From NCBI RefSeq assembly GCF_018398935.1, contig NZ_CP074694.1:2220001-2252000 (forward strand): a DNA stretch of 32,000 nt, read 5' to 3'. Positions 1-31,546 of this stretch are shown piece after piece. The notes under the pieces were generated by a model. That model was not told where the DNA came from and searched no databases. It saw nothing but the letters and a program-made list of their open reading frames with translations. Numbering within the stretch: position 1 is the stretch's first letter; the number at the start of each line of letters is the position of its first letter. Source of the DNA: Telmatocola sphagniphila (GTDB taxonomy: Bacteria > Planctomycetota > Planctomycetia > Gemmatales > Gemmataceae). The translations under genes were made by a program, and so were the position numbers.

Positions 1-435
1 CCAGGCACCTGCCGCAGTGGCTCCCTTCTTCAAGAGTTCGGTCGCCCCTTTTTCCAGCCATTTGGAAACCTCATCCTGCTTGTGCCCCGAATTCAGGACC
101 AGATAGGTCAGCACAATTTTCGTGTCCGGCTTCGGCACGGTCACCCCACTGAAGGAAAGACCGACCTTGAAGGTACCGTCGTTAAGATCTCCCATGTGTT
201 TGACCTTGGCCGGATAGATTTTATCTCCCACTTTTAACGCGAAGGACACATGATCGGTATCGTTGTGGCGTGATCGGGTGCGCAGAATCTCAAAGTTCTC
301 CAGCGTGAAGTCGTAGGTTTTCGCTGCTGGCGGTTTTTCCTTGGGAGGATCGGCTTGAGCGTTCATACCTCCAAAGGCAATACTCACTACCATTGCGGCG
401 ATAAAATTTCTGAAATTCAGTATGCGATTAAACAT
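1..435 (-). CDS. hypothetical exported protein; its C-terminal end (3' of the gene) lies beyond the window edge
   Basis: ATG at 435-433. I checked by hand that the frame stays open to base 1 (145 codons, no stop). The N-terminus MFNRILNFRNFIAAMVVSIAFGGMNAQA resembles a Sec signal peptide. It is absent from the ORF track because there is no stop codon in the window. Confidence 0.6.
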   Translation of the reverse strand, partial: MFNRILNFRNFIAAMVVSIAFGGMNAQADPPKEKPPAAKTYDFTLENFEILRTRSRHNDTDHVSFALKVGDKIYPAKVKHMGDLNDGTFKVGLSFSGVTVPKPDTKIVLTYLVLNSGHKQDEVSKWLEKGATELLKKGATAAGAW

Positions 436-816
436 GGTCAATTTCCTATCGGCAGGAGGTGAAACGGAGCCTTTGCAGCCTGCCGAACTGATGGCGGCTC
501 CGCGTTTTCTTGGAGAAGACTTGGGCTTCCAAATCCCTGTGACTGGTGACCTCTTTGTTCTCCACGCACTCTTCTTTGCTCGAGAAATCCGGTTGTGACC
601 GAAGAAACGAAAAAATTGTTTGGAGCCGGTCGAGGAGAACGCAACAAAAATTGACTGAAAGTGGCCGAGACAGTTTTCTGAATCAAATTGAGCCAGGTGC
701 AGTCACAAATTCCCAGCAAGAAGAATAAGCAGGTGTGGCGAACAGCTTCCGATCAATGGGATTCGAAGGGCATTGTTTACCACGGAACAATCTTTCGGCT
801 TAAAAAGGGGACATCC

Positions 817-1716
817 ATGCTCTTTTCAACGCAATCGGCAAAGCGATTTCTTTTTCTCTCTACATTTTTAAATTTCCTAAGTGTCGCATCGCTCCCAGCC
901 GATGAGCCACGGAACCCTGTGGCTCCAAATGCCAAAACTTACGCTGAAAGCGTTCTCACTTCCCAACCCGTCGGCTACTGGCGACTCAACGAAACACACG
1001 GGTCAATCGCTGGCGACGCAACGAAAAATAAAATTGATGGTCGCTATTTCGATGGAGTCTCCCTGGGCAGATTGGGAGCATTCGCACAGGGAGGTGATAA
1101 AGCCGTAGGCTTCGACGGCAAAACAGGGTACATCGAAATCCCTTCGAACAAAGCCTTCAGTCAACCGACCAGCGGCAAAGGATTTTCCGTTAAGGTCTGG
1201 TTCAAGCCGACTCGACTCGAATTCCCCGGCGAAACCGACGATCCTTATGTTTACTGGATCGGCAAAGGCCAACCGAGCCAATACGAATGGGCCTTGCGCT
1301 TCTATAGTCGCAATTCAAGCCGGCCGAATCGGATCTCCGCTTATGTTTTCAACAAGGAGGGGAAAAAAGGAGCCGGCGCCGAGTTCGAAGATCCCGTTAA
1401 GTTGAATGAATGGATTCATGTGGTCGCCTGCTTTGATCCTGGCAGCAAAGCCAACCCGAAGGCCGGCGTATCAATTTACAAGAATGGCGAGCTTCGAGGC
1501 AGCCCGGCCAGCCAACGGGGGGCACGGTATGCTTCGTTTGACATCACTCCAAGAGCTGGGTCAGCGCCGATTCGACTGGGAACCCGCAATTTCACGAGTT
1601 TTTTCCTGGGCGAATTGGACGAGTTGGCCATTTACCCTAGAGTTTTGACAGACAAGGAAATTCTCGAACATTTCCGAGCGGCCGACGCACTGAAGCCGAA
1701 CCTTTCGAAGAAATGA
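817..1716 (+). CDS. secreted LamG / concanavalin-A-like lectin domain protein (Laminin_G_3-like)
   Basis: This is ORF 688..1716. I prefer the internal ATG at 817 because it starts a signal peptide (MLFSTQSAKRFLFLSTFLNFLSVASLPA). LamG_3-type motifs are present: GYIEIP, WIHVVACFD, VSIYKNGEL and FLGELDELAIYPRVLTDKEI. Confidence 0.8.
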   Translation: MLFSTQSAKRFLFLSTFLNFLSVASLPADEPRNPVAPNAKTYAESVLTSQPVGYWRLNETHGSIAGDATKNKIDGRYFDGVSLGRLGAFAQGGDKAVGFDGKTGYIEIPSNKAFSQPTSGKGFSVKVWFKPTRLEFPGETDDPYVYWIGKGQPSQYEWALRFYSRNSSRPNRISAYVFNKEGKKGAGAEFEDPVKLNEWIHVVACFDPGSKANPKAGVSIYKNGELRGSPASQRGARYASFDITPRAGSAPIRLGTRNFTSFFLGELDELAIYPRVLTDKEILEHFRAADALKPNLSKK

Positions 1717-1985
1717 AACGCAGCAAATACGTCGACAAACTGGTGGATTTCGCGAGTTGACTATCGATCTCAAGCTTGCACTCAAGCCCCAGGAAATGCA
1801 ATGGTCTATCACTGAATTCGAATAGACGGGAGAGAATGGATCCGGGTTCGCCGAAGAGCCCTTGAGAGAGATTCCAAGTCGCAAAATAACTATAAACGCG
1901 GTTAATTCCGCACTCTTTTGAATAATAAGATTCCAGATGCCGCCGGTGCAGGGTAAGCTTAACTTGTACGCAGGAAAGTACGATT

Positions 1986-2405
1986 ATGGCTGACATAGAT
2001 GCTATCCAACTCAAAGTGGAATCGGCGCTCCTGTTCCTCTTACTTCTGCAAGCAATATCGCTTCCTGTGGCCAGCTTATTCGGATATCTTGCCGGACGCA
2101 AAGGGGCTACTCAAACGGTCCGGATTTTGGCGATCTCGCTTTTATTGGGGGCGGCAGTCCCCTGCTATCTCGCCGTAACTCGTTGCACTAACGCACAGCA
2201 TGATATACAAGCACGATTCGAGGGCAAAGTTTCTAGTCCTTTTGTTTCCTCCGAAAGAGCGAACGCCTATGTTGCGGCGGTGACAAACTTTATGACATTT
2301 AGTATTGGGCTCGGAATGATAACGCTGATTATCACTCTCGCAGCGTTCGGAATCGCTCGGTGGCGGTCCCGGGCTTTAAGTTCTAATTTGTTGATTTTGG
2401 AATAA
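1986..2405 (+). CDS. hypothetical integral membrane protein (about 3 TM helices)
   Basis: 139-aa ORF with hydrophobic stretches ALLFLLLLQAISLPVASLFGYLA, ILAISLLLGAAVPCYLAV and FMTFSIGLGMITLIITLAAFGIA. I recognise no family. Confidence 0.5.
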   Translation: MADIDAIQLKVESALLFLLLLQAISLPVASLFGYLAGRKGATQTVRILAISLLLGAAVPCYLAVTRCTNAQHDIQARFEGKVSSPFVSSERANAYVAAVTNFMTFSIGLGMITLIITLAAFGIARWRSRALSSNLLILE

Positions 2406-2419
2406 AGTTCGAAGGAAAA

Positions 2420-2704
2420 TTGAGAGGCTTCCCAGTGAGTGTCATTCTTAAGCTGCGACAGTTGGCTCAGCGCTGTGACTTACTGCTAGGACGATCTGTT
2501 TATAGAGGTACCCTCAGATCAACAGAATTAGAAACTCTTCATTCAGACCTCAGTAAGGCACTTGAAGAGATCTGCACTCCGCAGGGATTTGAAATTAAGA
2601 CAGATAAAAATAGATACGATCAGAAGCAAATCAATCGAGGATCCAAGTTTATTTCCATTCCGAGCGGCATTAACTCTCCTAGTGATAGCGGGCTTAAACG
2701 TTAG
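2420..2704 (+). CDS. hypothetical protein (weak call)
   Basis: 94-aa ORF with a TTG start and no recognisable motif. It ends 2 bp before the left inverted-repeat arm. Confidence 0.25.
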   Translation: MRGFPVSVILKLRQLAQRCDLLLGRSVYRGTLRSTELETLHSDLSKALEEICTPQGFEIKTDKNRYDQKQINRGSKFISIPSGINSPSDSGLKR

Positions 2705-2735
2705 AGAAAAGCGGCCTCCGATTCGAGAGGCCGGC
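2703..2735 (-). terminator. intrinsic terminator of Tyr-rich gene copy A
   Basis: Hairpin GGCCTCCGA/TCG(AG)AGGCC at 2713-2732. On the minus strand it is followed by CUUUUCUCU. It sits immediately after the stop codon at 2740. Confidence 0.65.
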
Positions 2736-2739
2736 GGAT

Positions 2740-3213
2740 TTAGTTTTTCTCGGGGATCTTTTCGGTGGTTGGCAGATCGTCGGGCGGCAGATCCAGAGTA
2801 GTATCGTCGGTGGCTTCCGGGAGTTGGGGCAGCTTGCCCATGGGAGGGAACGCCTTCTCGGGAATCTCTTCGAGGCTGCCCTTGCGATCCGCTTCGGCCA
2901 GCAGGGAGTATTCGCCTTTACCTTCGGTCTTCACCGGGCAGCGGCCCCAGTAGGTTTTGTTGTAAGAGTTGTAGTAATAGTAGTATTTGGGTTTGGAGGG
3001 ATGGTAGATCACGTAGTGGTGCTTGTAGCCGGAGTAGGTCGGGCTGGGCTTGTAGTAATAGGTTCGGTAGTAGTAGGACTTGCTGGAATGCTGTTTCCAG
3101 TTGCCGTAGTACTGCCGGGAGGCGTGAGCATCGCCGGCCGTGGCCGCCGAGAAGACACCGAACATTGAGCTGATCACCAAGACCAAAGAGAGAATTCTGG
3201 CACGGGTACCCAT
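2740..3213 (-). CDS. secreted tyrosine-rich low-complexity protein, copy A
   Basis: This is ORF 2740..3291. I prefer the ATG at 3213, which lies 8 nt after AGGAG and begins the signal peptide MGTRARILSLVLVISSMFGVFSAATAGDAHA. The mature region has 19 Tyr in 58 residues (YYY and YYYYY runs) and an acidic/Pro tail. The protein is identical to copy B. Confidence 0.75.
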   Translation of the reverse strand: MGTRARILSLVLVISSMFGVFSAATAGDAHASRQYYGNWKQHSSKSYYYRTYYYKPSPTYSGYKHHYVIYHPSKPKYYYYYNSYNKTYWGRCPVKTEGKGEYSLLAEADRKGSLEEIPEKAFPPMGKLPQLPEATDDTTLDLPPDDLPTTEKIPEKN

Positions 3214-3635
3214 TTTCGAACTCCTGACAAAAGAAGATTTTTTCGAGTCTGCTGAGATCTCGAAAGGGCCATTTTCGTATGGCTCTGCCACCTTAACGGG
3301 TCTCTGTTCAGAATCTTCTCAAAAACCACTAGATTAAGTTTTGTTTATTAAAATGTGAGAGGCCTCCAGCTCTGGCTGGCAAAGGCGTACAGAGAATCCC
3401 TTAGGTCTCGATCCCTGGGAGGACAAATAGGAGATCTCACGAAATCGCCGAGCCCTTCGATGGCAGAACTCTCTTCCCCAGAACGCGGGCTCCTCCGAGT
3501 GCTACGGCTCCCTCCCAAAGGGCATCGATTCCAAAAAGTTTTTTTTCTGGGGAAGATTTTCGCGGCGTTCCCGTTTCAGAGGACGAGAGGGTGATAAAAA
3601 CCCAAAAACAAAAATCCAATTCAGGAGTGAGTATC

Positions 3636-3932
3636 ATGTTTCGAGTCCTCAAATTGAGCTGTGCGGCGGCCGTCTGCGTTCTGGGCCTGAGTGTGGGCAA
3701 CTCGGCCAAAGCCGACGAATGTGGTTGCGGTTATGTGATGAAGAAGATCACAATCTGCGAACCGGTGGTCTGCTATGAAACCCGCCAGGTTCCCTACCAG
3801 GCCTGCATCACCCAGTACGATCACTGCGGCAAGGCTTACGAAACCCACGTTACCCGATACCGGGAAGTCCAGATAAAGGTCACCAAGGAACGACATGTGA
3901 CCAAGTACGTCAAAGTGCCGACCCACTATTAA
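3636..3932 (+). CDS. small secreted Cys-rich protein, copy A (paralog of 10714..11010)
   Basis: ATG at 3636 lies 7 nt after AGGAG. The signal peptide is MFRVLKLSCAAAVCVLGLSVGNSAKA. The mature part has 7 Cys (CGCG, ICEPVVC, ..). Comparison with the paralog shows 22 synonymous codon differences against 9 conservative replacements, which supports real coding sequence. Confidence 0.8.
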   Translation: MFRVLKLSCAAAVCVLGLSVGNSAKADECGCGYVMKKITICEPVVCYETRQVPYQACITQYDHCGKAYETHVTRYREVQIKVTKERHVTKYVKVPTHY

Positions 3933-3953
3933 TCCTCACGCTCTAAAAAACCC

Positions 3954-4003
3954 AAACGCGAAAGGCCGATGCAACGATGGCATCGGCCTTTCGCGTTTTT
4001 CTG
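3954..4003 (+). terminator. strong intrinsic terminator of Cys-rich gene copy A
   Basis: Perfect 17-bp stem ACGCGAAAGGCCGATGC/GCATCGGCCTTTCGCGT (3956-3972 / 3980-3996), a 7-nt loop, then TTTTT. Confidence 0.85.
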
Positions 4004-4446
4004 TTCCCCAAAGTTTTCCCAAGTCTATCCCCAGAATGATTCATCTCAATGCGGTTCAAGATCGCGTAAATAATCCGTGGATCCAACCAACGCGGAGGCA
4101 TCTATCAAACCGCCGCACTCCTTCTTGAAGACGATTGCCGATCGTGCAGAAGTGTATGCCCGATCCAACTAGTAATCGGATATTAATCCGTTTCTTCGCT
4201 TCCGTAAGCATCCGCAAACGCAAGGCAATTTCGTAGGATTTAGAGAGCGATTTGCCTGGTAAAAGCATCGGCTTTCTAGGAGGTGACCGAGAATCTCCGG
4301 GCGGTCAAATTCAAGGGCTCGCAACTTTTCAATTGTAGATCAGGCAGTTCAATGAATTGCTGGGGCCGTTCGAAATTAGCAGATCAAATAAAGATTTTGA
4401 CAACTGGGCGATCACTTCAAATCAACGTTCCGTATTGTTCACACAC

Positions 4447-5442
4447 TTACGCAGGCTTCATCTTCTGAGCCTCTTTATCCAGCACTGTGGAAACTCGATC
4501 AATGAGTTCATTGAGATTATTTTTCACGGTACTAAATTCTTCGGGCTTGCTTTCAAGACGCACTACCAGATCGTCTAACTTTCGTTCCCAATCGAAGCAG
4601 CGTTTCAAGAGATCGGCCTTCTTGGTCGCACTCATGCTCGCGGGAGGGTTCAATTGAAGCTTCGAGCATCCCATACGCAATTCATTAATGAGAGTCGCCA
4701 GAGCCAGCCGGTCCTCTGCGGGACGCACTAGGGCTTCCCTGAAAGCCGCCGCGGTCCATTGATAAACTCCCGCATCATCCAAGCCGCTAGGAGGTTCTTT
4801 GAGCAATCCCCAGGGAGCTATGGCCACTTCATTTTTCACTTGAGGGACAATCCCCAGACTCTCTCGAAGTTGAGGAATATTCACGAGTGCGATCAGCACT
4901 GCCGCAGCCGTTACAAAAGAAGATAAGGCAGCAAAGCCCCAACGCGAATGAGATTTGGCTCGGCGCGCGATTGGTATCTCGGCTTCCGAAACGAGGATAG
5001 CCTCCGATAGGGGCGACACTACCATTTGCTCGGCCGCTGAGGTCCCACTCTCCATAGGCAGGAAGGACTGGAACTTTTTCCAACTATTATGGGTGCTCGG
5101 ACCGAGATCCATTTCCTTCTGCCAAAGCCGATCCCAATAGGGACCTCCTTCGAGGAACAGGAAATCGACCAGTTCGCGAAGTAAATAGGGATGTCGAAGC
5201 AGCCTTTTCAAATCTTTCTCGTTGAGCACTCCTAGCCCCCGTTTGGCCACCTTGGGCAACGCCTCGGCATAGCTATCCGTCAGCGAATATTTCCTCTCGA
5301 TCGGTTTGTCGGCGTGAGACTTTTCTCGAAGAGCAGTTAATTCTTCGGCCAGTTGGTAGGTTTCCCCCCGCGCAAAAATCTCCTCTAACCAGGGAGCCAG
5401 TTGCGATTCTTCTTCAGGTATAGTCAGACTGATCAATTTCAT
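4447..5442 (-). CDS. single-pass membrane protein translationally coupled to the ECF sigma (putative anti-sigma factor)
   Basis: Its ATG overlaps the sigma stop codon (ATGA at 5439-5442). It has one TM helix, WGFAALSSFVTAAAVLIALVNI, at about residues 168-189. I see no HxxxCxxC zinc anti-sigma motif. Confidence 0.6.
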   Translation of the reverse strand: MKLISLTIPEEESQLAPWLEEIFARGETYQLAEELTALREKSHADKPIERKYSLTDSYAEALPKVAKRGLGVLNEKDLKRLLRHPYLLRELVDFLFLEGGPYWDRLWQKEMDLGPSTHNSWKKFQSFLPMESGTSAAEQMVVSPLSEAILVSEAEIPIARRAKSHSRWGFAALSSFVTAAAVLIALVNIPQLRESLGIVPQVKNEVAIAPWGLLKEPPSGLDDAGVYQWTAAAFREALVRPAEDRLALATLINELRMGCSKLQLNPPASMSATKKADLLKRCFDWERKLDDLVVRLESKPEEFSTVKNNLNELIDRVSTVLDKEAQKMKPA

Positions 5443-6029
5443 GACCGTCCTCCCGTGGGGCGTTCCCCATGTGTGATTCCGCTTTTAGTCTCCATGCAGA
5501 CTTTCAAGCGAGCCTTGATATGGTGCACCATTTTGTAGATAGTCTCCGCCGGTTTGCCGGCTTGCTCGGCGATAACGACCGGCTTTACTCCCTCGCTCCA
5601 CTTGGAGATCACAACTCGCTCGGCCTCCGATAAACCATCCAGGCAATTTTTGAGATTTTCTCCATGTTCCGATACTTCCAGCACAGCGGATTCCGGCGAT
5701 TCCATTTGCTGAATATTTTCGTCCGCTCGAATATGTTTATTTCGCGTCGCATCCTTGCGGATGAGATCGATCGCTTCCCGATAGGCCACTTTTTTCAACC
5801 AAGCCACGTTAATCTTTTCGACGGTTCCCGCCGAGCTCTGCATAAACGCCTTTTGCCAGACTAGTTGCATGATGTCTTCAATCGTTTCTTTTTGCAGTCT
5901 CAGGGATCGAAGATACCAGAAGAGACGGCCATGGTTTTCATCGTGAAACGCCTTGAACGTCTCCTGAGTGCAGGGGCTCAGAAGCGTTCGGCTCGGCGCA
6001 TCGGGGTCGGCGTGGGGGATTGCAGTCAT
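5439..6029 (-). CDS. ECF-type sigma-70 family RNA polymerase sigma factor
   Basis: This is ORF 5439..6089, which opens on TTG; I prefer the ATG at 6029. A region-2-like segment (IMQLVWQKAFMQ ... AWLKKVAYREAIDLIRK) and a region-4 HTH-like segment (LSEAERVVISKWSEGVKPVVIAEQAGKPAETIYKMVHHIKARL) are present. Confidence 0.8.
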   Translation of the reverse strand: MTAIPHADPDAPSRTLLSPCTQETFKAFHDENHGRLFWYLRSLRLQKETIEDIMQLVWQKAFMQSSAGTVEKINVAWLKKVAYREAIDLIRKDATRNKHIRADENIQQMESPESAVLEVSEHGENLKNCLDGLSEAERVVISKWSEGVKPVVIAEQAGKPAETIYKMVHHIKARLKVCMETKSGITHGERPTGGRS

Positions 6030-6146
6030 TCCGTTAAAGATTGACTTATCCCCTTCGCTTGGCAAGGGGTCGCAGTATTTAGACTGCAAAAAAACCAGCC
6101 CAAGGACTTCAACGGATCTGGGATCGATTTCTTCCTAAAAAAGTCG

Positions 6147-6169
6147 AGAATATTTTTATTAAATATTCT
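6147..6169. promoter_or_regulatory. perfect 9-bp inverted repeat AGAATATTT-N5-AAATATTCT in the divergent control region
   Basis: Read directly from the sequence. It lies in the 479-bp AT-rich gap between the sigma start (6029) and the cytochrome-like gene start (6509). It is an operator candidate only. Confidence 0.3.
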
Positions 6170-6316
6170 TTATGTATATTTGCATCGGAATTGAGAAATT
6201 ACTACCTTGGTGAGAACTCGGATTTAGCAGGTAATCTTTGTGTGAAGCTTGTTACATTCCTTCTACTCCTCAGAACGAATCCGCCTAATCCGTTGTTGGG
6301 AAATTCCGGGAGATTA

Positions 6317-6330
6317 CGGAAAATTTTCCG
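6317..6330. promoter_or_regulatory. 14-bp perfect palindrome CGGAAAATTTTCCG
   Basis: Read directly from the sequence. It is flanked by the imperfect repeats GAAATTCCGGGAG / CTCCCGAATTTTC and lies in the same divergent control region. Confidence 0.3.
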
Positions 6331-6508
6331 CTCCCGAATTTTCTTGACGCACATCGCCACATAACCGAAAACGGATAGGGAGATCCGGCCCTTGGTAAGT
6401 CAGATCCTTTTTTCGAACCATTTATCATTACCTGAGGAAGAAATCGGCGCTATTTCCGTTTAAGGGAATAGAAAGCAGAAATCTTGCAATCACATACGGG
6501 GACTAGCG

Positions 6509-8287
6509 ATGAAGGTGTTTCTGATTTTTTCAGGTTTGTTGACCTCGGTCACCCTCGTATCGCCGATTCACGCCGACGAAAAAACCGATCTGGCGGCCCA
6601 GGCCTACGAGGTCATTGCCAAGCACTGCCTCCGCTGCCACAAGGGGCCGGGTTCGGAAGGAGGAATTGCGAATTTCGGCTCGATTGCCGATTTGCAGGCA
6701 CCCCGGGGGAAGAAAGCGGCCCTTATCGTGGCTGGTAAGCCTGAAGAGTCCCGCCTTTACCAGCGTCTGGCGATCGATGGGGATATGCCGCCGGAAGAGG
6801 CGCTGCGAGCCACCGGTAAGCCCACCGAAGAAGAAAAAGCGATTCTGAAAAAATGGATTGAAGCTTCCGCTCCCCCCTTTACAAATTCCGCAAAGCAGCG
6901 AAATTTCATCACTCTGGCTGATGAGCTGACAGCGATTCGCGAAGCACTGCAAAAAGCCGATCGTGAAGACCGGCCTTACCTCCGCTTTTTTACTCTGACC
7001 CATCTTTACAACGACAAGACGATTCCCGATGCCAAATTGAAACTCATTCGAGCTGCCCTCTCGAAAGCCCTCAATAGTCTGAGTCTGAAGCCGACCATTG
7101 TTCTCCCCGTCGCAGTAAATAGTGCGGAAACGGTTTACGCGGTCGATATCCGACGACTCGATTGGGATACACGCCATCTCTGGAACCGGATCCTCGAATA
7201 TTACCCCTACGGCCTACTCTACACCAAGTATCCCGATCCTACGATTCGTCGGCTCGCCGAAGATGTGGAAGACCTATCAAAGGCGCAGATACCGGTTTTA
7301 CGAGCCGACTGGTTTGTCGCCACGGCCCTCCGTCCCCCGTTGTATCACCTCCTTCTGGATATACCGGAGAACGCCCTGAGACTGGAACAGCGTGTGGGCG
7401 TCAATGTTGCCGCCAACTTCGAGAGCGACAAATTGACTCGAGCCGGTTTTTCCCGCTCCGGGGTTTCTGCCCAGAACCGCCTGGTCGAACGGCACGACTC
7501 TAACCAAGGGGTTTACTGGAAGAGTTACGACTTCAAGCCGGAAACAGGGCGAGGTCGGTTGATTCGGTTTCCGCTGGGGCCATTGAATCTGTATCCGAAA
7601 GGGCGTCATCCGTTTGAAAATCAGGCTTTTTCCCACGATGGCGGGGAAATTATCTTCAGCCTTCCCAATAAACTCCATGCCTACATGCTCGTCGACGGTA
7701 AGAACAAGCGGATCGACGAAGGACCGATTTCCGTAGTCGGCGATTCCAAAAAAACGGCCGGAACCTCGGCCATCGTCAATGGAATTTCCTGCATGGCATG
7801 CCATACCAAGGGAATGATCGAACTGAAGGATTACGTTCGGGACAATGCCGCGGTTTTTGGCAGAGCCGATGAGAAAGTCCGGAAGCTCTATCTCGAGCCG
7901 AAAAAGATGGATGAGTTGATCAAGCAGGATCAGGAACAGTACCTTTCCTCGCTGGAAAAAGCGGTGGGCCCGTTCCTGAAGATTGGCCCCGATGCCAACA
8001 AGTCCATTTCGGACCTCTCCGAACCCTGCAGCTATGTGATCATGACCTATCGTTCGTCTTCCGATGCTTATCTCACTCTGGATCGCATCGCGAGCGAACT
8101 TTACCTGAAAAATGGTGAGGAACTGAAGGCAAAAGTCGGAGCCAGGAAGTTCAAGGAATTGGGGCTAGCGTCGATGCTGACACAACCCGACGCAGTGATC
8201 ACCCGGCTCGAATGGGAGGCCGTGGACGGCTACTCTCTGATGCAGGAAATGGGCAAAGAACTGGGTGGTTTACCCATCGGGAAATAA
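6509..8287 (+). CDS. exported protein with an N-terminal planctomycete cytochrome-c-like (PSCyt1-type) domain and a second CxxCH motif
   Basis: Signal peptide MKVFLIFSGLLTSVTLVSPIHA. CLRCH is at 6626-6640 in the context HCLRCHKGPGSEGG...GKPEESRLYQRL...MPP, which is typical of PSCyt1. A second motif, CMACH, is at 7790-7804. Confidence 0.75.
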   Translation: MKVFLIFSGLLTSVTLVSPIHADEKTDLAAQAYEVIAKHCLRCHKGPGSEGGIANFGSIADLQAPRGKKAALIVAGKPEESRLYQRLAIDGDMPPEEALRATGKPTEEEKAILKKWIEASAPPFTNSAKQRNFITLADELTAIREALQKADREDRPYLRFFTLTHLYNDKTIPDAKLKLIRAALSKALNSLSLKPTIVLPVAVNSAETVYAVDIRRLDWDTRHLWNRILEYYPYGLLYTKYPDPTIRRLAEDVEDLSKAQIPVLRADWFVATALRPPLYHLLLDIPENALRLEQRVGVNVAANFESDKLTRAGFSRSGVSAQNRLVERHDSNQGVYWKSYDFKPETGRGRLIRFPLGPLNLYPKGRHPFENQAFSHDGGEIIFSLPNKLHAYMLVDGKNKRIDEGPISVVGDSKKTAGTSAIVNGISCMACHTKGMIELKDYVRDNAAVFGRADEKVRKLYLEPKKMDELIKQDQEQYLSSLEKAVGPFLKIGPDANKSISDLSEPCSYVIMTYRSSSDAYLTLDRIASELYLKNGEELKAKVGARKFKELGLASMLTQPDAVITRLEWEAVDGYSLMQEMGKELGGLPIGK

Positions 8288-8318
8288 TCGAAAATTACCA
8301 TCAACTGGAGATTTAACG

Positions 8319-9434
8319 ATGTATCGTTTGATGATATTACTGCTCGTCGGGCTGCTTCATGCCGCTTCCGTACGAGCAGAAGAAATAAAGACCTTGCAGG
8401 CCATAGCGGCGGAACTGGCCACCGACGTAAAGGCCGTCTTGAACAAAGAAAACCAGCAAGCGGTTCGTATCGGACTGTTCAGCCCGCGCGGCTCGGCCCT
8501 AGGGGACGCGAACGCCGGACTGTCCATCTGTTCCGCTCTTGAAAAAGAACTGGGGACGCTCGCCAATCCCCAGGCGATCTACGAGATCTCGGGCTCTTTC
8601 TTGGCCGTGGAAAATCCGAGAGATCCCAAACTGACGCAGATTTCCGTGAAACCGGAATTAACCAACACCAAGACGGGCGAAACCGTGAAGGTCTTTCTGC
8701 CCAAGGATCTCTACATCGGTGGCAACACCGATATTGCTCGCATTCTGGGAGTCACGGGCAGAGTACCTTCCGAGAAGGAAGGTACTCAGGTGAGCTACGG
8801 CGAACGCAACAAGAATATTCAGGAACTGCACAAGCAGCCGAGAACCTTCGTTCATGGGCCGGACCACTCGCTGATTTCCTCCTGCCCGGAAAGCCTCTAC
8901 GATGTTCAGATTTTGGTCGGCCGCACACCCGGCAAAGTAGCTCCTCGATCGGCAACGCTCGTGGCCGGGAAAGCTTTTGTCGATATCGCGAAGTCCGAGT
9001 TCTATCAGGTTCGCGTAATCAATCGCTCCAACAAGGAAGTCGCCGTCGCCATGGCAATCGACGGCGTGGATGAGTTTACTTTCAGCGATGTTAAAAAACC
9101 GGACGGCCGTCCGAAGTATTCGCACTGGATCATCGAACCCAAAGGTCAACCCAATGCGGAGGTGACTATTAAAGGTTGGCATAAGGATCTGAATACGCTG
9201 CTTTCCTTTGTCGTCACAGATCTGGGCAAAGGTGCCGCGAGCCGGTTTCCGACAAAAACTTTTGGGAAAGTGGGTACTATCTCGCTGGCGTTCTCGACTA
9301 CTTTTGATGCTCAATCCTCGCGCGGCGGAGTCGAGACCGGCTTCGGTCCCCCCATCGAAGTCAAGCAGAAAGAAGTGCATCGGAAGATCGATACAGCTCC
9401 ACACGAATTTCTAACCATCCGATATCAGAGATAG
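8319..9434 (+). CDS. secreted hypothetical protein
   Basis: This is ORF 8265..9434. I prefer the ATG at 8319 (GGAG 8 nt upstream), which starts the signal peptide MYRLMILLLVGLLHAASVRA. It is probably co-transcribed with 6509..8287. I am not confident of any family. Confidence 0.65.
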   Translation: MYRLMILLLVGLLHAASVRAEEIKTLQAIAAELATDVKAVLNKENQQAVRIGLFSPRGSALGDANAGLSICSALEKELGTLANPQAIYEISGSFLAVENPRDPKLTQISVKPELTNTKTGETVKVFLPKDLYIGGNTDIARILGVTGRVPSEKEGTQVSYGERNKNIQELHKQPRTFVHGPDHSLISSCPESLYDVQILVGRTPGKVAPRSATLVAGKAFVDIAKSEFYQVRVINRSNKEVAVAMAIDGVDEFTFSDVKKPDGRPKYSHWIIEPKGQPNAEVTIKGWHKDLNTLLSFVVTDLGKGAASRFPTKTFGKVGTISLAFSTTFDAQSSRGGVETGFGPPIEVKQKEVHRKIDTAPHEFLTIRYQR

Positions 9435-9442
9435 TTTTTCTG

Positions 9443-9468
9443 GCGAGTCGGAAAGTGATTCGACTCGC
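9443..9468 (+). terminator. intergenic hairpin (possible attenuator or weak terminator)
   Basis: Stem GCGAGTCG (9443-9450) / CGACTCGC (9461-9468) with a 10-nt loop. The downstream sequence is pyrimidine-rich but has no clean U-tract. Confidence 0.3.
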
Positions 9469-9527
9469 TATCCGCTCTCTTGTCTGTTACCATTTCATTT
9501 CCAGTTCTAATTTCCCAGAGTCCACAT

Positions 9528-10463
9528 ATGCGTTCCATTCTTTTTTTCTCTGCACTGATAGCCGTCCTGGGGGCTGTCTCCGCCCTCTTTTCTCAGAGTA
9601 CTGCCACCAAGAAGTATGCCGTGCTGGTGGGGATCAACGATTTTCGAGCGAAGGAAACGTTGGTGTTCGACAACGCTGAGCCCAAACCCGGCCAGGAAGT
9701 GGAGTTGGAGATTGCAAACGGCGTGAAGATGAAGTTTTGTTGGATCCCTCCCGGGAAGGCGACGTTGGGTTCGCCGGAGAGTGAGAAAGATCGCTCCGAA
9801 GATGAGAAAGAGCACGAGTATACGAGCCAGGGGTATTGGTTAGCAAAGCATCCGGTGACGCAGGAGGAGTGGACGGCGGTGATGGGAACGACGCCGTTTT
9901 GGTTTCATAAAGAGGGAGATGGCAAGGATAAAGTTCGTGGTTTGGAAACGGGTCGTTTTCCTGCGGAGCAGGTGTCGTGGGATAATGCGCAGGAGTTTAT
10001 CAAGAAGTTGAATGGGAAGTTGGGATCTGGTTCGTTGCAGAAGCTGTTTGGCACGGGGATGAAACTAAGTTTGCCGCATGAGGACGAGTGGGAGTATGCA
10101 TGTCGTGGTGGGTTAGGAAACAAGCGTGTGTATTATTGGGGGGATAGTTTGAATGGGGACAAGGCGAATTGCAATGGGGAATATCCTTATGGGACGGAAG
10201 CCAAAGGTGAGAACTTGAAGCGAACATCGCGAGTAGGCATGTATGAGAGTAAGGCTCCTCATCCTTGGGGATTGTGCGATATGAGTGGTAATGTTTTTCA
10301 GTGGTGCGAGAATAAGTTCGACGCCACGGGCTCGGTCCGGGATGTCCGCGGCGGGAGTTGGATCAGCAACGCCGGGTACTGCCGGTCAGCGTACCGGAAC
10401 GGGGGCGATCCGACGGACCGGTCCAACATCCTGGGCTTCCGCCTCGCAGTTGCAAATCGGTGA
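9528..10463 (+). CDS. exported FGE-sulfatase-fold (SUMF1/EgtB/PvdO family) domain protein, probably non-catalytic
   Basis: ATG at 9528 starts the signal peptide MRSILFFSALIAVLGAVSALFS. FGE-fold motifs are present: MKFCWIPPGKATLGSP, HPVTQEEWTAVMG, WEYACRGG, GNVFQWC and VRGGSWISNAGYCRSAYR...GFRL. It keeps only one of the two catalytic Cys positions of human FGE (MCHRSYC). Confidence 0.85.
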   Translation: MRSILFFSALIAVLGAVSALFSQSTATKKYAVLVGINDFRAKETLVFDNAEPKPGQEVELEIANGVKMKFCWIPPGKATLGSPESEKDRSEDEKEHEYTSQGYWLAKHPVTQEEWTAVMGTTPFWFHKEGDGKDKVRGLETGRFPAEQVSWDNAQEFIKKLNGKLGSGSLQKLFGTGMKLSLPHEDEWEYACRGGLGNKRVYYWGDSLNGDKANCNGEYPYGTEAKGENLKRTSRVGMYESKAPHPWGLCDMSGNVFQWCENKFDATGSVRDVRGGSWISNAGYCRSAYRNGGDPTDRSNILGFRLAVANR

Positions 10464-10640
10464 ACCAGTCGAGTGAGGCTAATCGCGTACAGTGGCCGAG
10501 TACGATGTCTCGAAAAAGATCCTCGCTTGACCCAAGAGATTTGCTAGGCCCAATGTGAACCGTCTTGAGTCAGGTTTTGAGTGCCTAGATTGTTCGAACA
10601 GGATGCTGGAGAACGACCTCGGCTCATTCGGATTTTACTG

Positions 10641-10689
10641 AAATAAAAACGCGAGAAGCCGATGCGACCACTGCATCGGCTTCTCGCGT
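10641..10689 (-). terminator. strong intrinsic terminator of Cys-rich gene copy B
   Basis: 17-bp stem ACGCGAGAAGCCGATGC/GCATCGGCTTCTCGCGT, then a U-tract on the minus strand. Two base pairs differ from copy A and both changes are compensatory. Confidence 0.85.
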
Positions 10690-10713
10690 GTAGGGAAGAT
10701 CGGTCGACTGAAA

Positions 10714-11010
10714 TTAATAGTGAGTCGGCACTTTGATGTACTTTGTCACATGGCGTTCCTTCGTGACCTTCACCTGAATCTCCCGATATCGGGTCACATG
10801 GGTTTCGTAGGCCTTGCCGCAGTGATCGTACTGCGTGATGCAAGCCTGGTAAGGAACCTGACGGGTTTCATAGCAAATCACCGGTTCGCAAACCGTGATC
10901 TTTTTCAGCACGTAACCGCAGCCGCATTCGTCGGCTTTAGCCGAGCTTCCGAAAGACATTCCCAGAACGCAGACGGCCGCCGCACAGCTCAATTTGAGGA
11001 CTCGAAACAT
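10714..11010 (-). CDS. small secreted Cys-rich protein, copy B
   Basis: Mirror image of 3636..3932 with the same RBS and ATG. There are 9 conservative substitutions relative to copy A, and all Cys are conserved. Confidence 0.8.
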   Translation of the reverse strand: MFRVLKLSCAAAVCVLGMSFGSSAKADECGCGYVLKKITVCEPVICYETRQVPYQACITQYDHCGKAYETHVTRYREIQVKVTKERHVTKYIKVPTHY

Positions 11011-11432
11011 GATACTCACTCCTGAATTGGATTTTTGTTTTTGGGTTTTTATCACCCTCTCGTCCTCTGAAACGGGACCGCCGCGAAAATCTTCCCCAGA
11101 AAAAAAACTTTTTGGAATCGATGCCCTTTGGGAGGGAGCCGTAGCACTCGGAGGAGCCCACGTTCTGGGGAAGAGAGTTCTGCCATCGAGTGGCTCGGCG
11201 ATTTCGTGAGATCTCCTATTTGTCCTCCCAGGGATCGAGACCTAAGGGATTCTCTGTACGCCTTTGCCAGCCAGAGCTGGAGGCCTCTCACATTTTAATA
11301 AACAAAACTTAATCTAGTGGTTTTTGAGAAGATTCTGAACAGAGACCCGTTAAGGTGGCAGAGCCATACGAAAATGGCCCTTTCGAGATCTCAGCAGACT
11401 CGAAAAAATCTTCTTTTGTCAGGAGTTCGAAA

Positions 11433-11906
11433 ATGGGTACCCGTGCCAGAATTCTCTCTTTGGTCTTGGTGATCAGCTCAATGTTCGGTGTCTTCTCGGC
11501 GGCCACGGCCGGCGATGCTCACGCCTCCCGGCAGTACTACGGCAACTGGAAACAGCATTCCAGCAAGTCCTACTACTACCGAACCTATTACTACAAGCCC
11601 AGCCCGACCTACTCCGGCTACAAGCACCACTACGTGATCTACCATCCCTCCAAACCCAAATACTACTATTACTACAACTCTTACAACAAAACCTACTGGG
11701 GCCGCTGCCCGGTGAAGACCGAAGGTAAAGGCGAATACTCCCTGCTGGCCGAAGCGGATCGCAAGGGCAGCCTCGAAGAGATTCCCGAGAAGGCGTTCCC
11801 TCCCATGGGCAAGCTGCCCCAACTCCCGGAAGCCACCGACGATACTACTCTGGATCTGCCGCCCGACGATCTGCCAACCACCGAAAAGATCCCCGAGAAA
11901 AACTAA
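11433..11906 (+). CDS. secreted tyrosine-rich low-complexity protein, copy B
   Basis: ATG at 11433 follows AGGAG. The 157-aa product is identical to copy A. Confidence 0.75.
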   Translation: MGTRARILSLVLVISSMFGVFSAATAGDAHASRQYYGNWKQHSSKSYYYRTYYYKPSPTYSGYKHHYVIYHPSKPKYYYYYNSYNKTYWGRCPVKTEGKGEYSLLAEADRKGSLEEIPEKAFPPMGKLPQLPEATDDTTLDLPPDDLPTTEKIPEKN

Positions 11907-11925
11907 ATCCGCTAAAATTAAATCC

Positions 11926-11958
11926 GCCGGCCTCTCGAATCGGAGGCCGCTTTTCGTC
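11926..11958 (+). terminator. intrinsic terminator of Tyr-rich gene copy B
   Basis: Hairpin GGCCTCTCGAATCGGAGGCC at 11929-11948, followed by GCTTTTCGTC. Confidence 0.65.
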
Positions 11959-12010
11959 TACCGCTTCATAGTACACTCATGAGCAAACGGTCCGGTTCGA
12001 GGTAACTTCC

Positions 12011-14182
12011 ATGCGTTGGTTTTTATCCTTTTTATTACTGTCTCTGGCTGGCCCGTTCTTCGCGCAAGAGGGCAAACGATATGCAATCATCGTGGGCATT
12101 AATGAATATCAGCATTCCAAGTTAGGGAAGCTCAATTGTGCTATCAACGATGCTACCGATCTCGGGAAAATTCTCAGCAACGATGGCTATCTCCTGACGC
12201 TGCTCACTAATAACACTGCAATTAAGCCGACCAAAGCGGAAATCGATAGAGCCATCGAGAGCGTCTTGCAGAAGGCCAAGCCCCAGGACACGGTATTAAT
12301 TGCCCTCTCCGGGCATGGTTTGCAATTCGATAAAGAAGCCTACTTCTGCCCGATGGACGCTAAACCATTTCCCGATGAGAGTAGAACTCTCGTCTCTCTG
12401 AATGGCATTTATAATCAATTCGACAAGTCCTTCGCGGGCGTCAAGGTCTTATTCGTGGATGCTTGCAGGGATGACCCAGATCCGGCCCGGAGCGTAAGTA
12501 AAGGAATCGACGCGGATAGTGCTCCGGAACCTCCCAAGGGTGTAATGGCCATGTTTAGTTGCTCGGCCCGGCAACGTTCCTACGAAGATCTGGAACGCAA
12601 GCATGGAGTTTTCTTCCACTATGTGATTGAAGGACTGACCGGCAAAGCGGTTAATGCCGATGGCGAAGTGACCTTCACTCTCCTTAACGATTATGTGGCA
12701 AAGCGGGTCAATCCCCGAGTCTTGGAGTTATACAAAGGGGCCCAACAGATCCCGAACATGGTGGCTCGAACGGTGGGAGCCTCACCGGTTTTAGTGAACG
12801 AGGAGAACAATAAGATTGCCCGGGAACTGCTCGAGCGATCCTCCTATCCGGGAGGGGGTAAAAAATATATCGAGGATCATAAAGATCGCATTTCTGCCTG
12901 GAAAAAGGCAGCGGAAAAAGGTAACCCAGCAGCGATGACGATGGTCGGCACTTTACACAACAATGGCATAGAAGCGACCAAAAGCAACGCTCAAGCCCTG
13001 GTCTGGTATCGCAAAGCAGCCGAACGGGGGGAAAGTAATGCAATATATTTGGTCGGAGTAGCTTATTTACATGGATACGGCGTAGCCAAAGATGAAGTCG
13101 AAGCGGTGAAATGGTTCAAAAAAGCGGCGGATGCTAAGCTTCCAACCGCGATGTGGCAGCTAGGTGAATGCTGTGCCAATGGTCGAGGTGGATTAAGCAA
13201 AGACGATGCAGAAGCCCTCAAATGGTACAAAAAAGCTGCCGAAGCGGGGAACACTCCAAGTATGATCAGGCTAGGAAATATGTGCCGTGATGGAAGTGGA
13301 GGTCTGACCAAGAACGAGACCGAAGCCGTCAACTGGTACAAAAAAGCCGCTGAAGCTGGAAATTCTGCTGCTATGAGCGATCTGGGTTTCATGTATGCCA
13401 ACAGCCGGGGCGGACTTACAAAAAACGATGTCGAAGCGTTTAAATGGTACAAACAAGCCGCCGAAAGGGGTAGCTCTTCGGGGATGAACCATTTGGGTTT
13501 CATGTATCGCGACGGTCGAGGTGGAATGGCAAAGGATGAAGTGGAAGCCGTGAAATGGTTTAAGAAGGCGGCCGAGGCAGGGAACGCCCAAGGTATGCAT
13601 AATCTTGGTAACATGTTTGCCAATGGCCGGGGAGGGTTATCCAAAGACGACGTCGAAGCTGTCAAATGGTACAAAAAAGCGGCCGAGGCCGGAGAGCCTT
13701 TGGCCATGTCCCATCTAGGTTTACTTTTTGAAAAGGGGAATGCCGGATTGACGAAGGACGATGTTGAAGCTGCCAAATGGTACAAAAAAGCGGCCGAACT
13801 AGGAAATGCTGTCGCGATGGAAAGCATTGGTTTCCGGTACGAAATGGGGCGTGGCGGATTGACCAAGGATGATGTCGAAGCTGCCAAATGGTACAAAAAA
13901 GCGGCCGAACTAGGAAATGCTGTCGCGATGTCCAATCTGGGTAACATGTACCGCGATGGACGAGGAAGCTTGCCGAAGGATGACTTAGAGATGATCAAAT
14001 GGTATCGGAAGTCCGCTGAGGCGGCGGATGACGGCGGCATGGCCAACCTGGGCTGGGCCTATCAAAATGGCCGAGGAGTTACTCGAGATCAAACAGAAGC
14101 AATCAAGTGGTATCGAAAAGCGGCCGCTAAGGGGAATGAATTTGCCAAAGACAAACTCAAAGCTCTTGGGAAAAACTCCTAA
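12011..14182 (+). CDS. exported caspase-like peptidase (C14 family) fused to about 12 Sel1 (TPR-like) repeats
   Basis: Signal peptide MRWFLSFLLLSLAGPFFA. The caspase fold starts at KRYAIIVGINEY. The catalytic dyad context is present: LSGHG (His codon 12314-12316) and FVDACRD (Cys codon 12464-12466). This is followed by 37-aa repeats of the form (A/V)xKW(Y/F)KKAAEAGNxxAMxxLGxMYxxGRGGLxKD. Confidence 0.9.
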   Translation: MRWFLSFLLLSLAGPFFAQEGKRYAIIVGINEYQHSKLGKLNCAINDATDLGKILSNDGYLLTLLTNNTAIKPTKAEIDRAIESVLQKAKPQDTVLIALSGHGLQFDKEAYFCPMDAKPFPDESRTLVSLNGIYNQFDKSFAGVKVLFVDACRDDPDPARSVSKGIDADSAPEPPKGVMAMFSCSARQRSYEDLERKHGVFFHYVIEGLTGKAVNADGEVTFTLLNDYVAKRVNPRVLELYKGAQQIPNMVARTVGASPVLVNEENNKIARELLERSSYPGGGKKYIEDHKDRISAWKKAAEKGNPAAMTMVGTLHNNGIEATKSNAQALVWYRKAAERGESNAIYLVGVAYLHGYGVAKDEVEAVKWFKKAADAKLPTAMWQLGECCANGRGGLSKDDAEALKWYKKAAEAGNTPSMIRLGNMCRDGSGGLTKNETEAVNWYKKAAEAGNSAAMSDLGFMYANSRGGLTKNDVEAFKWYKQAAERGSSSGMNHLGFMYRDGRGGMAKDEVEAVKWFKKAAEAGNAQGMHNLGNMFANGRGGLSKDDVEAVKWYKKAAEAGEPLAMSHLGLLFEKGNAGLTKDDVEAAKWYKKAAELGNAVAMESIGFRYEMGRGGLTKDDVEAAKWYKKAAELGNAVAMSNLGNMYRDGRGSLPKDDLEMIKWYRKSAEAADDGGMANLGWAYQNGRGVTRDQTEAIKWYRKAAAKGNEFAKDKLKALGKNS
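13745..13930. repeat. two adjacent, almost identical 111-bp Sel1 repeat units
   Basis: 13766-13819 and 13877-13930 are 54/54 identical. The flanks differ at only a few positions. Both encode ..VEAAKWYKKAAELGNAVAM.. Confidence 0.9.
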
Positions 14183-15290
14183 TTGGCTCTGACAGGAGGA
14201 GCGAAAAGATGAGGAATGCTCGAAGAATATGACTCTTTCTTCCATTTTGCAGAGCCTCGAAGAAGTGAATTGCAATTCCCAGTCAAGTTTCGTCCTTTGT
14301 CCCAATTGTTAGGCAGCAAATTGGGAAGCGGTCCGATCGACGTAATGAAAGGGCTCAGGAGGACGACTGGAAATACTCCCAAGGCCAGATTTTGTGAGAC
14401 AACCGGGTCTGGTGTAGCTGGATAGAGTCACGAGGGTTCTTCGACTTAATCCGAGCCAAAATCCTTTTGAGTATTACAGAGGTTTAGAGGGAATCGTTTT
14501 TCCAGTCGTTGACCACTACTCCTGCATTAATCGCGAGTGACTGCCAATTTTCCCGCCTGGAAACTCTGCCAAACCGGTTAACACATCGGAGAGATTTTGG
14601 AGTTCGAAAAGTGATGCACCCGCACACCACAATTGACACGACCCAAAGTGCCCTACCTCGCTTCGATTCACACAAATCGCCGTAAACTATTGCAAGTAAA
14701 AGATTTGTACCCTGCTCTTCAAAACGACTCTCGCCAACTTTAGAGTAGTTCTCCAAGAAATGTGACGTTCGGAGCGCTTATCACTTTTCAAAGGAATATC
14801 CAATTCTTAACTACTCAACACATCAAAGAGAATTCCTCCGCTTGCCCAAAATCTGCATCTTCCCCGAAATATACACACTATTTCGCGTATTCGCGATTCT
14901 CTACTCCGCGCTCCATTGCGCAGAGAATCTTTCGGGGCTCCGTGTGTAAAGGCCTTGATTTTTTCGAAGTGCTGCTTTTCGATAGCGCGCTTGCTGACTC
15001 TAAATTATTCTACCGAGGAGTTAATACTCGTTGATCGAGGGCGAACAGTGGAAGGAGACAAGTCATAAGTTGTCATATGATTTAACTTTGTGAAATCTGA
15101 AAATGCATAATCCGGATTCAACTACATTGTTTGAGCACAATTGATCCTTAGCTCTGCAATTTTTTTAGAGTTATTTGCATAAGTGCGCTAAAGGGTGCAA
15201 TCTGAATCAAGTGAGTATCGCTGATTCTGCTTCGTATCACTTCAATTAATAATTGAGACTGAATCCGTCGGTGGGCCAATGTGAGTCAGC

Positions 15291-26375: not shown

Positions 26376-26426
26376 GATAGCCCTAATTTCTGTTCCTGTC
26401 AGACGACCGATCGTGCGGCGAACGTC
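26376..26426. repeat. 51-bp direct repeat, copy A (partner 31496-31546)
   Basis: GATAGCCCTAATTTCTGTTCCTGTCAGACGACCGATCGTGCGGCGAACGTC matches 31496-31546 at 48/51 positions in the same orientation. Confidence 0.9.
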
Positions 26427-30695: not shown

Positions 30696-30789
30696 GGTAG
30701 ACTTCCTTATTCCTGGAGTCGCCAATTCATTTTTTCACTCTAATCCCAATGCGCCAAATCCGGGGAAAACCCCCGGAAGAATTTAGTAA

Positions 30790-31495: not shown

Positions 31496-31546
31496 GATAG
31501 CCCTATTTTCTGTCCCCGTCAGACGACCGATCGTGCGGCGAACGTC
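31496..31546. repeat. 51-bp direct repeat, copy B (partner 26376-26426)
   Basis: GATAGCCCTATTTTCTGTCCCCGTCAGACGACCGATCGTGCGGCGAACGTC. It lies between the stop of the 31592 gene and the ECF sigma promoter region. Confidence 0.9.

Follow-up and report, generated by a model that had tools for sequence, protein, structure and literature searches.

Inverted arms and the genes between them

The window analyzed here is a 32-kb stretch of DNA from the bog planctomycete Telmatocola sphagniphila (Gemmataceae), where a region of 9.25 kb is bracketed by the two arms of an inverted duplication. Each arm (A and B) carries a cassette of two divergent genes for secreted proteins, one rich in tyrosine (the Tyr gene) and the other rich in cysteine (the Cys gene). 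The central block between the arms encodes a sigma factor of the extracytoplasmic function (ECF) type, a membrane protein, a dihaem cytochrome-like protein, a secreted protein referred to as p389, and an exported protein of the FGE-sulfatase fold. The arms include the following features:

2706–4000, no strand assigned: arm A (Tyr terminator, Tyr gene, spacer, Cys gene, Cys terminator)
2712–2733, minus strand: terminator hairpin after Tyr A, from a hairpin search
2740–3213, minus strand: Tyr-rich secreted protein, copy A, 157 aa (KIH39_08900, QVL34006.1)
3636–3932, plus strand: Cys-rich small secreted protein, copy A, 98 aa (KIH39_08905)
3954–3998, plus strand: terminator after Cys A, 19-bp stem
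10645–11955, no strand assigned: arm B, the reverse complement of arm A, with 15 bp (11913–11927) that are missing from arm A
10649–10689, minus strand: terminator after Cys B, 17-bp stem
10714–11010, minus strand: Cys-rich small secreted protein, copy B (KIH39_08935), 37 nt and 9 aa apart from copy A
11433–11906, plus strand: Tyr-rich secreted protein, copy B, 157 aa (KIH39_08940, QVL34014.1), 100% identical to copy A
11928–11949, plus strand: terminator hairpin after Tyr B, from a hairpin search

The original prediction, made from the sequence of the window, described the arms as reverse complements of each other. This was borne out by a repeat search, which paired 2734–3933 with 10713–11912 (1,200 nt, 97% complementary) and additionally 2706–2747 with 11914–11955 (42 nt), and by a base-by-base alignment. 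The coordinates and strands of the genes also agreed with the predicted layout of the same divergent pair in each arm, with the Tyr gene pointing outward and the Cys gene inward. The spacer between the two genes, predicted at about 420 bp, was measured at 422 bp in each arm, and the two terminators expected in each arm were located, with all four hairpins found.

Three zones were distinguished in the base-by-base alignment. In the first zone (2706–3454), the arms are identical except for a 15-bp indel at 2733/11913–11927. The 749 bp of perfect identity claimed earlier is broken by this indel, and the longest exact run is 721 bp (2734–3454, equivalent to 11192–11912), which extends over both coding sequence and non-coding spacer with no differences. 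The second zone (3455–3685, 231 bp) contains four substitutions, and the third zone (3686–3933) contains 37. Past position 3933, the similarity of the arms decays (3934–4000) and reaches noise by approximately 4000/10645. The outer ~980 bp of the arms, including the Tyr gene, both promoters, and most of the spacer, are almost identical.

At the indel, arm A lacks one unit of a 15-bp tandem duplication (TAAATCCGC plus TAAAAT) that is located between the Tyr stop codon and the terminator. The long form was found in all environmental contigs, and the loss is confined to arm A in the type strain.

The Tyr-rich protein belongs to a family of 167 matches with a length of ~155 aa each, none of which is informatively named, and the best match in the searched genome collection has an identity of 55%. 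Strongly conserved motifs in the family alignment included RQYY..W, YR.YYYKP, GYKHHYV, YYYNPY, YWGRCP, YSLL, and DLPPDDLP. An AlphaFold 2 (AF2) model of the protein, with a predicted local distance difference test (pLDDT) score of 85.6, showed a small beta fold, for which a Foldseek search of the PDB returned no matches. The Cys-rich protein represents a family of 85–100-aa proteins with 115 cluster representatives at 50% identity and the motif CYETR.VPY..V..YDHCG.PY, and it matched no Pfam family. A metagenome scan with the Cys-rich protein as the query returned one locus, and the genomic context around a distant homolog was uninformative.

Five genes were found in the central block:

4447–5442, minus strand: 331-aa single-pass membrane protein, presumed anti-sigma factor, with an ATGA overlap with the sigma gene
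5439–6089, minus strand: ECF sigma factor (KIH39_08915), start at TTG 6089 or ATG 6029; TIGR02937, TIGR02989, and Sigma70_r2 (weak)
6509–8287, plus strand: 592-aa dihaem c-type cytochrome-like protein (KIH39_08920) with two CxxCH motifs
8265–9434, plus strand: p389, 389-aa secreted protein, likely start ATG 8319; conserved partner downstream of the dihaem protein
9480–10463, plus strand: exported FGE-sulfatase-fold protein (PF03781, 3e-38)

The contents of this block were as originally predicted. On one strand, a sigma factor is translationally coupled to a membrane protein, where the sigma stop codon and the start codon of the membrane protein overlap as ATGA. The sigma factor matched TIGR02937 (sigma70-ECF) with 49.1 bits against a cutoff of 42.9, which indicates an ECF type with sigma-70 regions 2 and 4 only. 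It also matched TIGR02989 at 8e-18, under the cutoff of that model, and Pfam Sigma70_r2 weakly. The membrane protein contains one predicted transmembrane segment (residues 168–190) and is presumed, from gene position only, to be an anti-sigma factor. Divergently, the expected series of cytochrome-like, secreted, and exported FGE-fold genes was recognized from the two CxxCH motifs and the PF03781 domain.

A total of 2,368 homologs were found for the dihaem protein, and both CxxCH motifs are invariant in the 45 homologs aligned. The exported 592-aa protein thus carries the CxxCH signature of a c-type cytochrome and may bind haem; its match to PSCyt1 was weak (21.9 bits against a cutoff of 22). 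Its AF2 model (pLDDT 88.7) had no fold match in the PDB by Foldseek. For p389, no family matches were found in Pfam or NCBIfam and no sequence matches in the PDB, and sequence searches of Pfam, NCBIfam, PADLOC, and the PDB yielded nothing for the Tyr-rich, Cys-rich, dihaem, and p389 proteins. All four are predicted to be extracytoplasmic from their signal peptides.

A paralog of the dihaem protein (KIH39_08200) is encoded ~140 genes away. It is 91% identical, with 51 substitutions along most of its length, and hints at another copy of the module in a different part of the genome. Additionally, many dihaem homologs carry the Joint Genome Institute (JGI) label 'serine/threonine-protein kinase', while the domains recorded for them are of the cytochrome type only (PF07635, PF13442); the label looks like a propagated misannotation.

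Divergence and homogenization of the arms

Purifying selection has acted on the inner parts of the arms, composed of the Cys gene and its terminator, throughout a long period of divergence. Between the two Cys genes, 37 of 343 sites differ (10.8%), with a synonymous divergence (dS) of 0.53, a nonsynonymous divergence (dN) of 0.055, and a dN/dS ratio of 0.10. The two terminators differ at 23 of 67 positions (34%), and their stems of 17–19 bp were retained through paired, compensatory changes.

A third paralogous locus was identified in the same genome (L017:1-2594 and L018, Logan contigs from SRR14506984/SRR14506983; KIH39_08655). It contains a Cys gene, a Tyr gene of which an internal deletion has left only the two ends, and a paralog of the caspase–Sel1 gene that lies next to arm B. 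This locus is 71–79% identical to arm B and its flank, and both promoter motifs of the cassette are kept.

With KIH39_08655 as the outgroup, its state at the 37 differing Cys sites was that of arm B at 19 sites, that of arm A at 14, and neither at four. Changes thus occurred in both the A and the B lineages, and the split between them is old. Between strains, the arms differ by 0.2–3%, and the split of A and B is approximately four to five times deeper than the between-strain divergence of 2–3%.

Despite this old split, no differences were found over 721 bp, which leaves recent gene conversion as the only explanation of the outer identity. The arms lie on one replicon as homologous copies of opposite orientation, as expected for inverted paralogs, and their tract of identity is far above what the age of the duplication allows, as expected for gene conversion. 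The locus therefore looks like an old duplication with the outer part of its arms kept identical by gene conversion. Similarly, the zone of low divergence at 3455–3685 looks like an older conversion tract.

Perfect identity over 721 bp would also be expected from a mis-join of the assembly or from a very recent, one-step duplication without gene conversion. Either origin appeared extremely improbable, since the inner third of the arms is 11–34% diverged, with a low dN/dS ratio and compensatory changes in the terminators, and the two layers of divergence exclude a single recent copy. Both copies were annotated by the Prokaryotic Genome Annotation Pipeline (PGAP) in a complete genome of 6,592,641 bp, and both junctions of an arm with its outer flank are present in independent metagenomes. 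The original prediction had named an artefactual arm as a possible objection. In independent read data, the repeat is present as a collapsed contig. This Logan contig (L016 from SRR14506984, 995 bp) corresponds to 10961–11955 and is a collapsed-repeat unitig in the run's own reads, with branch points where expected. It ends exactly at the outer boundary of the repeat and at the start of dense divergence, as a collapsed two-copy repeat would in a short-read graph, which makes an assembly artefact very unlikely.

A shared promoter motif and a conserved gene module

Upstream regions were compared by eye, which yielded the motif RGAAGAWWYY-N9-YCCGTT, and a stripped 10-base form (GAAGA-N14-CCGTT) was scanned on both strands of the window. 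The sites of this ECF-type promoter motif were as follows:

3295–3319, minus strand: Tyr A, AGAAGATTCT-N9-CCCGTT; kept at the third paralogous locus (L017)
3551–3575, plus strand: Cys A, GGAAGATTTT-N9-CCCGTT
6111–6135, minus strand: sigma/anti-sigma operon, candidate autoregulatory promoter
6436–6460, plus strand: dihaem/p389/FGE operon
11071–11095, minus strand: Cys B
11327–11351, plus strand: Tyr B

These six matches were the only ones in the 64 kb of strand scanned, compared to an expectation of 0.12. When one mismatch was permitted, only two more sites were found, versus 0.94 expected. All six sites are correctly oriented, with a start codon 20–85 nt away. At the third paralogous locus, which is 71–79% identical, the motif lies at the distal edge of the sole alignable upstream blocks. 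A scan with the sigma-70 consensus, by comparison, identified fewer promoter-like sites than in shuffled sequences.

Promoters of the form GGAA-N18-GTT are the class recognized by the ECF sigma factors SigR, SigH, and SigE, and the six-site motif shares this architecture of GGAA and GTT separated by 18 nt. The copy before the sigma operon fits the autoregulation that is usual among ECF sigma factors. As one motif precedes all six units and occurs nowhere else in the 32 kb, the region reads as one compact ECF regulon; by this pattern, the whole arm-bracketed region would be a single regulon with both copies of the cassette among its targets. The original prediction had offered, as one option, the retention of two cassette copies beside a regulatory module, and this option gained in silico support from the presence of the motif before the sigma operon, the dihaem operon, and all four cassette genes.

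Outside the arms, a one-mismatch copy of the motif (GGAAGTTACC-N9-ACCGTT) is located at 11986–12010 on the minus strand, just before the start of the caspase–Sel1 gene and facing Tyr B in antisense. It may be a chance occurrence or an antisense promoter.

Genes of the central block and the cassette were also found together in other planctomycetes. For example, in metagenome-assembled genomes (MAGs) of Fuerstiella and Planctomycetaceae (L004:6515-14742, L006:270-8372, and L007:10001-17900), the Tyr-rich gene directly precedes, on the same strand, homologs of the dihaem and p389 genes. The dihaem homologs in these MAGs (~600 aa) have identities of 39–40% to the 592-aa protein, and the p389 homolog is ~370 aa in length. 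The operon continues with a WD40(-PDZ)-caspase protein of 1,140–1,190 aa, followed by a Q/N/P/Y-rich protein of 230–295 aa with a Cys-containing C-terminal domain. No ECF sigma factor was detected beside the operon in these three loci. In another locus (L001), the gene order is dihaem, p389, and Tyr. Of these partners, the window contains the dihaem, p389, and Tyr genes and a caspase–Sel1 gene just beyond arm B. As the central genes share a conserved operon with the Tyr-rich gene in other planctomycetes, the cassette is not a random passenger at this locus.

The neighboring caspase gene has the following position:

12011–14182, plus strand: caspase (Peptidase_C14)–Sel1 repeat protein, just beyond arm B; the order Cys, Tyr, caspase–Sel1 is repeated at the third paralogous locus

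No remnant of a caspase gene was found beyond arm A. The Sel1 repeats of the protein are encoded by seven to eight tandem units of 111 bp (60–88% identical) at 13083–13930. In the FGE-fold protein, residues ~44–60 just past the signal peptide (KKYAVLVGINDF) resemble the start of the caspase domain in the neighboring caspase–Sel1 protein (KRYAIIVGINEY), and this likeness may be a remnant of a caspase–FGE fusion or of a recombination event.

Further downstream, the window includes two direct repeats of 51 nt (26376–26426 and 31496–31546) that are 94% identical and 5,120 bp apart. They bracket a second FGE-fold gene (26648–27655), a fragment of a DDE_3 transposase (27683–28189), a Ser/Thr kinase gene (28473–30725), and a PF07638 ECF sigma factor gene (30790–31350).

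Orientation of the central block and comparison with known systems

Scans with Pfam and NCBIfam, covering all open reading frames (ORFs) in 1–14500 and the larger ORFs to 32000, identified no recombinase or transposase near the arms, and the nearest such match was the DDE_3 fragment, 15.7 kb away. No tRNA or Rfam family was found in the window. These scans sustained the original view that the layout is not an insertion sequence (IS) composite. A composite transposon or IS pair was rejected, as the arms encode two secreted proteins without transposase domains and no duplication was seen at their outer ends. A site-specific inverton of the Hin/Gin/Fim type or an Rci shufflon was also rejected, given that no invertase or integrase was found and that the arms are 1.3 kb in length, versus the short sites of 10–40 bp in such systems.

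The geometry of the locus, a segment of ~6.6 kb between inverted, outward-pointing genes for secreted proteins, is superficially similar to that of a programmed switch for phase or antigenic variation whose inversion would alter expression, with Hin/Fim invertons, shufflons, and the sap locus of Campylobacter fetus as models. In the latter, Dworkin and Blaser reportedly described a RecA-dependent inversion of a promoter-bearing segment of ~6.2 kb between oppositely oriented S-layer cassettes. The two loci are alike in size and geometry, in the use of homologous recombination, and in outward-facing genes for secreted proteins that share conserved 5' parts. However, a single invertible promoter selects the cassette in sap, whereas each cassette gene has a promoter within the repeat in T. 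sphagniphila and the Tyr-rich proteins are identical. A switch of the sap type was rejected on the position of the outward Tyr promoter motifs (3295–3319 and 11327–11351) inside the arms, with terminators closing both ends. Since each outward gene has its own promoter and terminator within its arm, inversion would be transcriptionally silent and would alter no junction between promoter and gene. With no invertase or recombinase within 15 kb and arms made of 1.3 kb of ordinary homology, unlike short recombinase sites, a programmed switch of any kind was considered very improbable.

The orientation of the block in other strains was examined in four informative contigs from close relatives, which are short-read metagenome assemblies that cross a repeat. 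The first (L012, which equals L014 and has a near-identical re-assembly in L015) contains outer flank A (window 2187–2705, 97%), the Tyr gene, and a Cys gene of the A type. Inward of the Cys gene, it continues with 305 bp (L012:1764-2068) that match neither inner flank and lack a terminator. In another contig (L009), a Cys gene of the A type and the Tyr gene are accompanied by 268 bp of caspase–Sel1 sequence, which represents the outer flank of the B side; across the arm, the contig is A-type at 44 of the 75 variable sites scored. In L013, the caspase-side flank is joined to an A-type Cys gene whose terminator matches that of arm A at 100% identity. All environmental Cys genes are A-type, and the A-type inner arm, which adjoins flank A in the type strain, is found next to the caspase flank in L009 and L013, an arrangement that would result from a crossover in the identical stretch. 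The breakpoint of homology between strains coincides exactly with the Cys stop codon in L012 and with the terminator end in L013, and the outer flanks are 97–99% conserved. An interpretation of the 72 bp inward of the L013 terminator (L013:1-72) as a diverged inner flank of the A side was dropped, as 89 of 500 shuffles scored equally.

These contigs are suggestive of an inversion of the block in other strains. The 6.6-kb block could invert by RecA-type crossover, with both orientations coexisting among strains or within populations in the manner of the tufA/tufB genes or of plastids. Such a flip-flop would be compatible with an old, gene-converted duplication and would add only the actual occurrence of inversion; the chance that it takes place was judged to fall slightly short of even. 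The exact identity over 721 bp and the evidence for gene conversion are in its favor, as are the linkage of an A-type Cys gene to the caspase-side flank in L009 and L013, the A-type terminator in the latter, and the position of the A-type inner arm at the opposite flank in the window. In addition, a single crossover is mechanistically easier to obtain than a conversion tract that extends all the way to the limit of the homology. However, L009 and L013 are short-read contigs over a repeat that was probably collapsed in the assembly graph, and both arms may be A-type in those strains, given that L012 on flank A also carries an A-type Cys gene. Moreover, the 72 bp inward of the L013 terminator are not significantly similar to either inner flank, and the inner flank of L012 is unrelated to both inner flanks of the window. 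Of the proposal that the whole block is flipped by homologous recombination, the part that stood is that the arms have recombined with each other, as the outer part is homogenized next to an inner part that is 11–34% diverged, while the flipping of the block itself is only suggested by L009 and L013.

The differing inner flanks may alternatively be explained if the arms serve as homology anchors, with the central block being swapped between strains by recombination in the conserved cassettes. This is consistent with the exact breaks of homology at the inner ends of the cassettes in L012 and L013 next to outer flanks of 97–99% conservation, and with the presence of other paralogs of module parts in the genome, KIH39_08200 (91% identical) and KIH39_08655. 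The inner flank on hand, however, amounts to just 72 and 305 bp, a plain indel beside the terminator would look alike, and an alternative central block was present in none of the environmental contigs. Exchange of the block in this manner was thus considered unlikely.

The original prediction implied a system without a described counterpart. Instead, the layout matches the known behavior of inverted paralogs. The tufA and tufB genes of Salmonella and E. coli are inverted paralogs with concerted evolution by gene conversion and with inversions generated by recombination (PMC6735719, PMC5485169). In both cases, inverted paralogs are nearly identical by RecA-type conversion, and the interval between them could invert without a dedicated recombinase. 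Unlike tufA/tufB, the interval in T. sphagniphila is only 6.6 kb, and the repeat comprises an entire divergent gene pair, promoters and terminators included. It is homogenized in its outer three quarters only, and a possible inversion is suggested by short contigs rather than isolated experimentally.

Two other systems share parts of these properties. The large inverted repeats of plastids have flip-flop isomers and copy correction. Similarly, the arms here are homogenized by conversion, and the single-copy region that they enclose would invert without a change in expression; unlike in plastids, the repeat is of kilobases rather than tens of kilobases, is only partly homogenized, and belongs to another organism and replicon type. 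The second comparison is with autoregulated modules of ECF sigma and anti-sigma factors that use promoters of the GGAA-N18-GTT class, such as SigR of Streptomyces and SigH and SigE of Mycobacterium. As in these modules, the sigma factor is coupled to a membrane protein, one motif occurs before its own operon and neighboring targets, and the spacing matches. In contrast, the partner in T. sphagniphila is without a recognizable anti-sigma domain, the module is predicted from sequence, and its putative targets are planctomycete-specific secreted proteins, two of which are encoded as an inverted duplicate pair.

Taken together, the locus is probably best described as an old inverted segmental duplication with a converted outer part, which flanks a sigma/anti-sigma operon and a dihaem/p389/FGE operon, forms one ECF regulon with them, and is not a programmed switch. 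Repeated gene conversion between the copies holds the outer ~980 bp virtually identical. Under this explanation, the sigma factor, once released by the presumed membrane anti-sigma factor, would activate its own operon together with the dihaem/p389/FGE operon and the four cassette genes of the two arms. With two cassettes, the Tyr-rich protein would be made at twofold dosage and the Cys-rich protein as two slightly different isoforms, and the selective meaning of the duplication likely lies in this dosage and in the two isoforms, which differ by nine conservative substitutions and are under purifying selection. A crossover in the identical stretch of 721 bp could invert the central block, as is expected of inverted paralogs and as the strain-level contigs hint, and such an inversion would be a functionally silent by-product of homology that changes only the orientation of the block relative to the chromosome.

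Several observations weigh against this explanation. The sequence inward of the arms in the environmental contigs matches neither inner flank of the window, so the history of the locus goes beyond a duplication followed by conversion, and the central block may be specific to this strain. The promoter motif was spotted by eye and then scored in that same window, and the pairing of the sigma factor with the motif was drawn from position and the logic of autoregulation only. The 331-aa membrane protein has no recognizable anti-sigma domain, with no family match in Pfam and NCBIfam scans, and none of the Tyr-rich, Cys-rich, dihaem, and p389 proteins had a PDB or Pfam match that gives a biochemical function.

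In a broader and rather improbable scenario, the locus would be a self-contained, planctomycete-specific ECF module of the envelope, composed of the Tyr-rich, Cys-rich, dihaem, p389, and FGE/caspase proteins, with a central block that is flipped or exchanged between strains via the duplicated cassettes as recombination anchors. Its role would be extracytoplasmic, for example in the oxidative cross-linking or processing of Tyr/Cys-rich wall proteins.

The architecture itself is ordinary, as inverted paralogs that are homogenized by conversion and possibly invert the intervening DNA are already well known. Within this class, the arms provide a clean natural case of a sharp conversion boundary, where 0% divergence lies beside 11%. 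The locus also offers a testable, compact ECF regulon and a candidate consensus promoter (the motif given above) in a phylum with almost no defined ECF regulons. Additionally, four widespread and uncharacterized planctomycete families, namely the ~155-aa Tyr-rich proteins, the ~590-aa dihaem proteins with more than 2,000 members, p389, and the caspase-domain partners, would be tied into one conserved and putatively co-regulated module.

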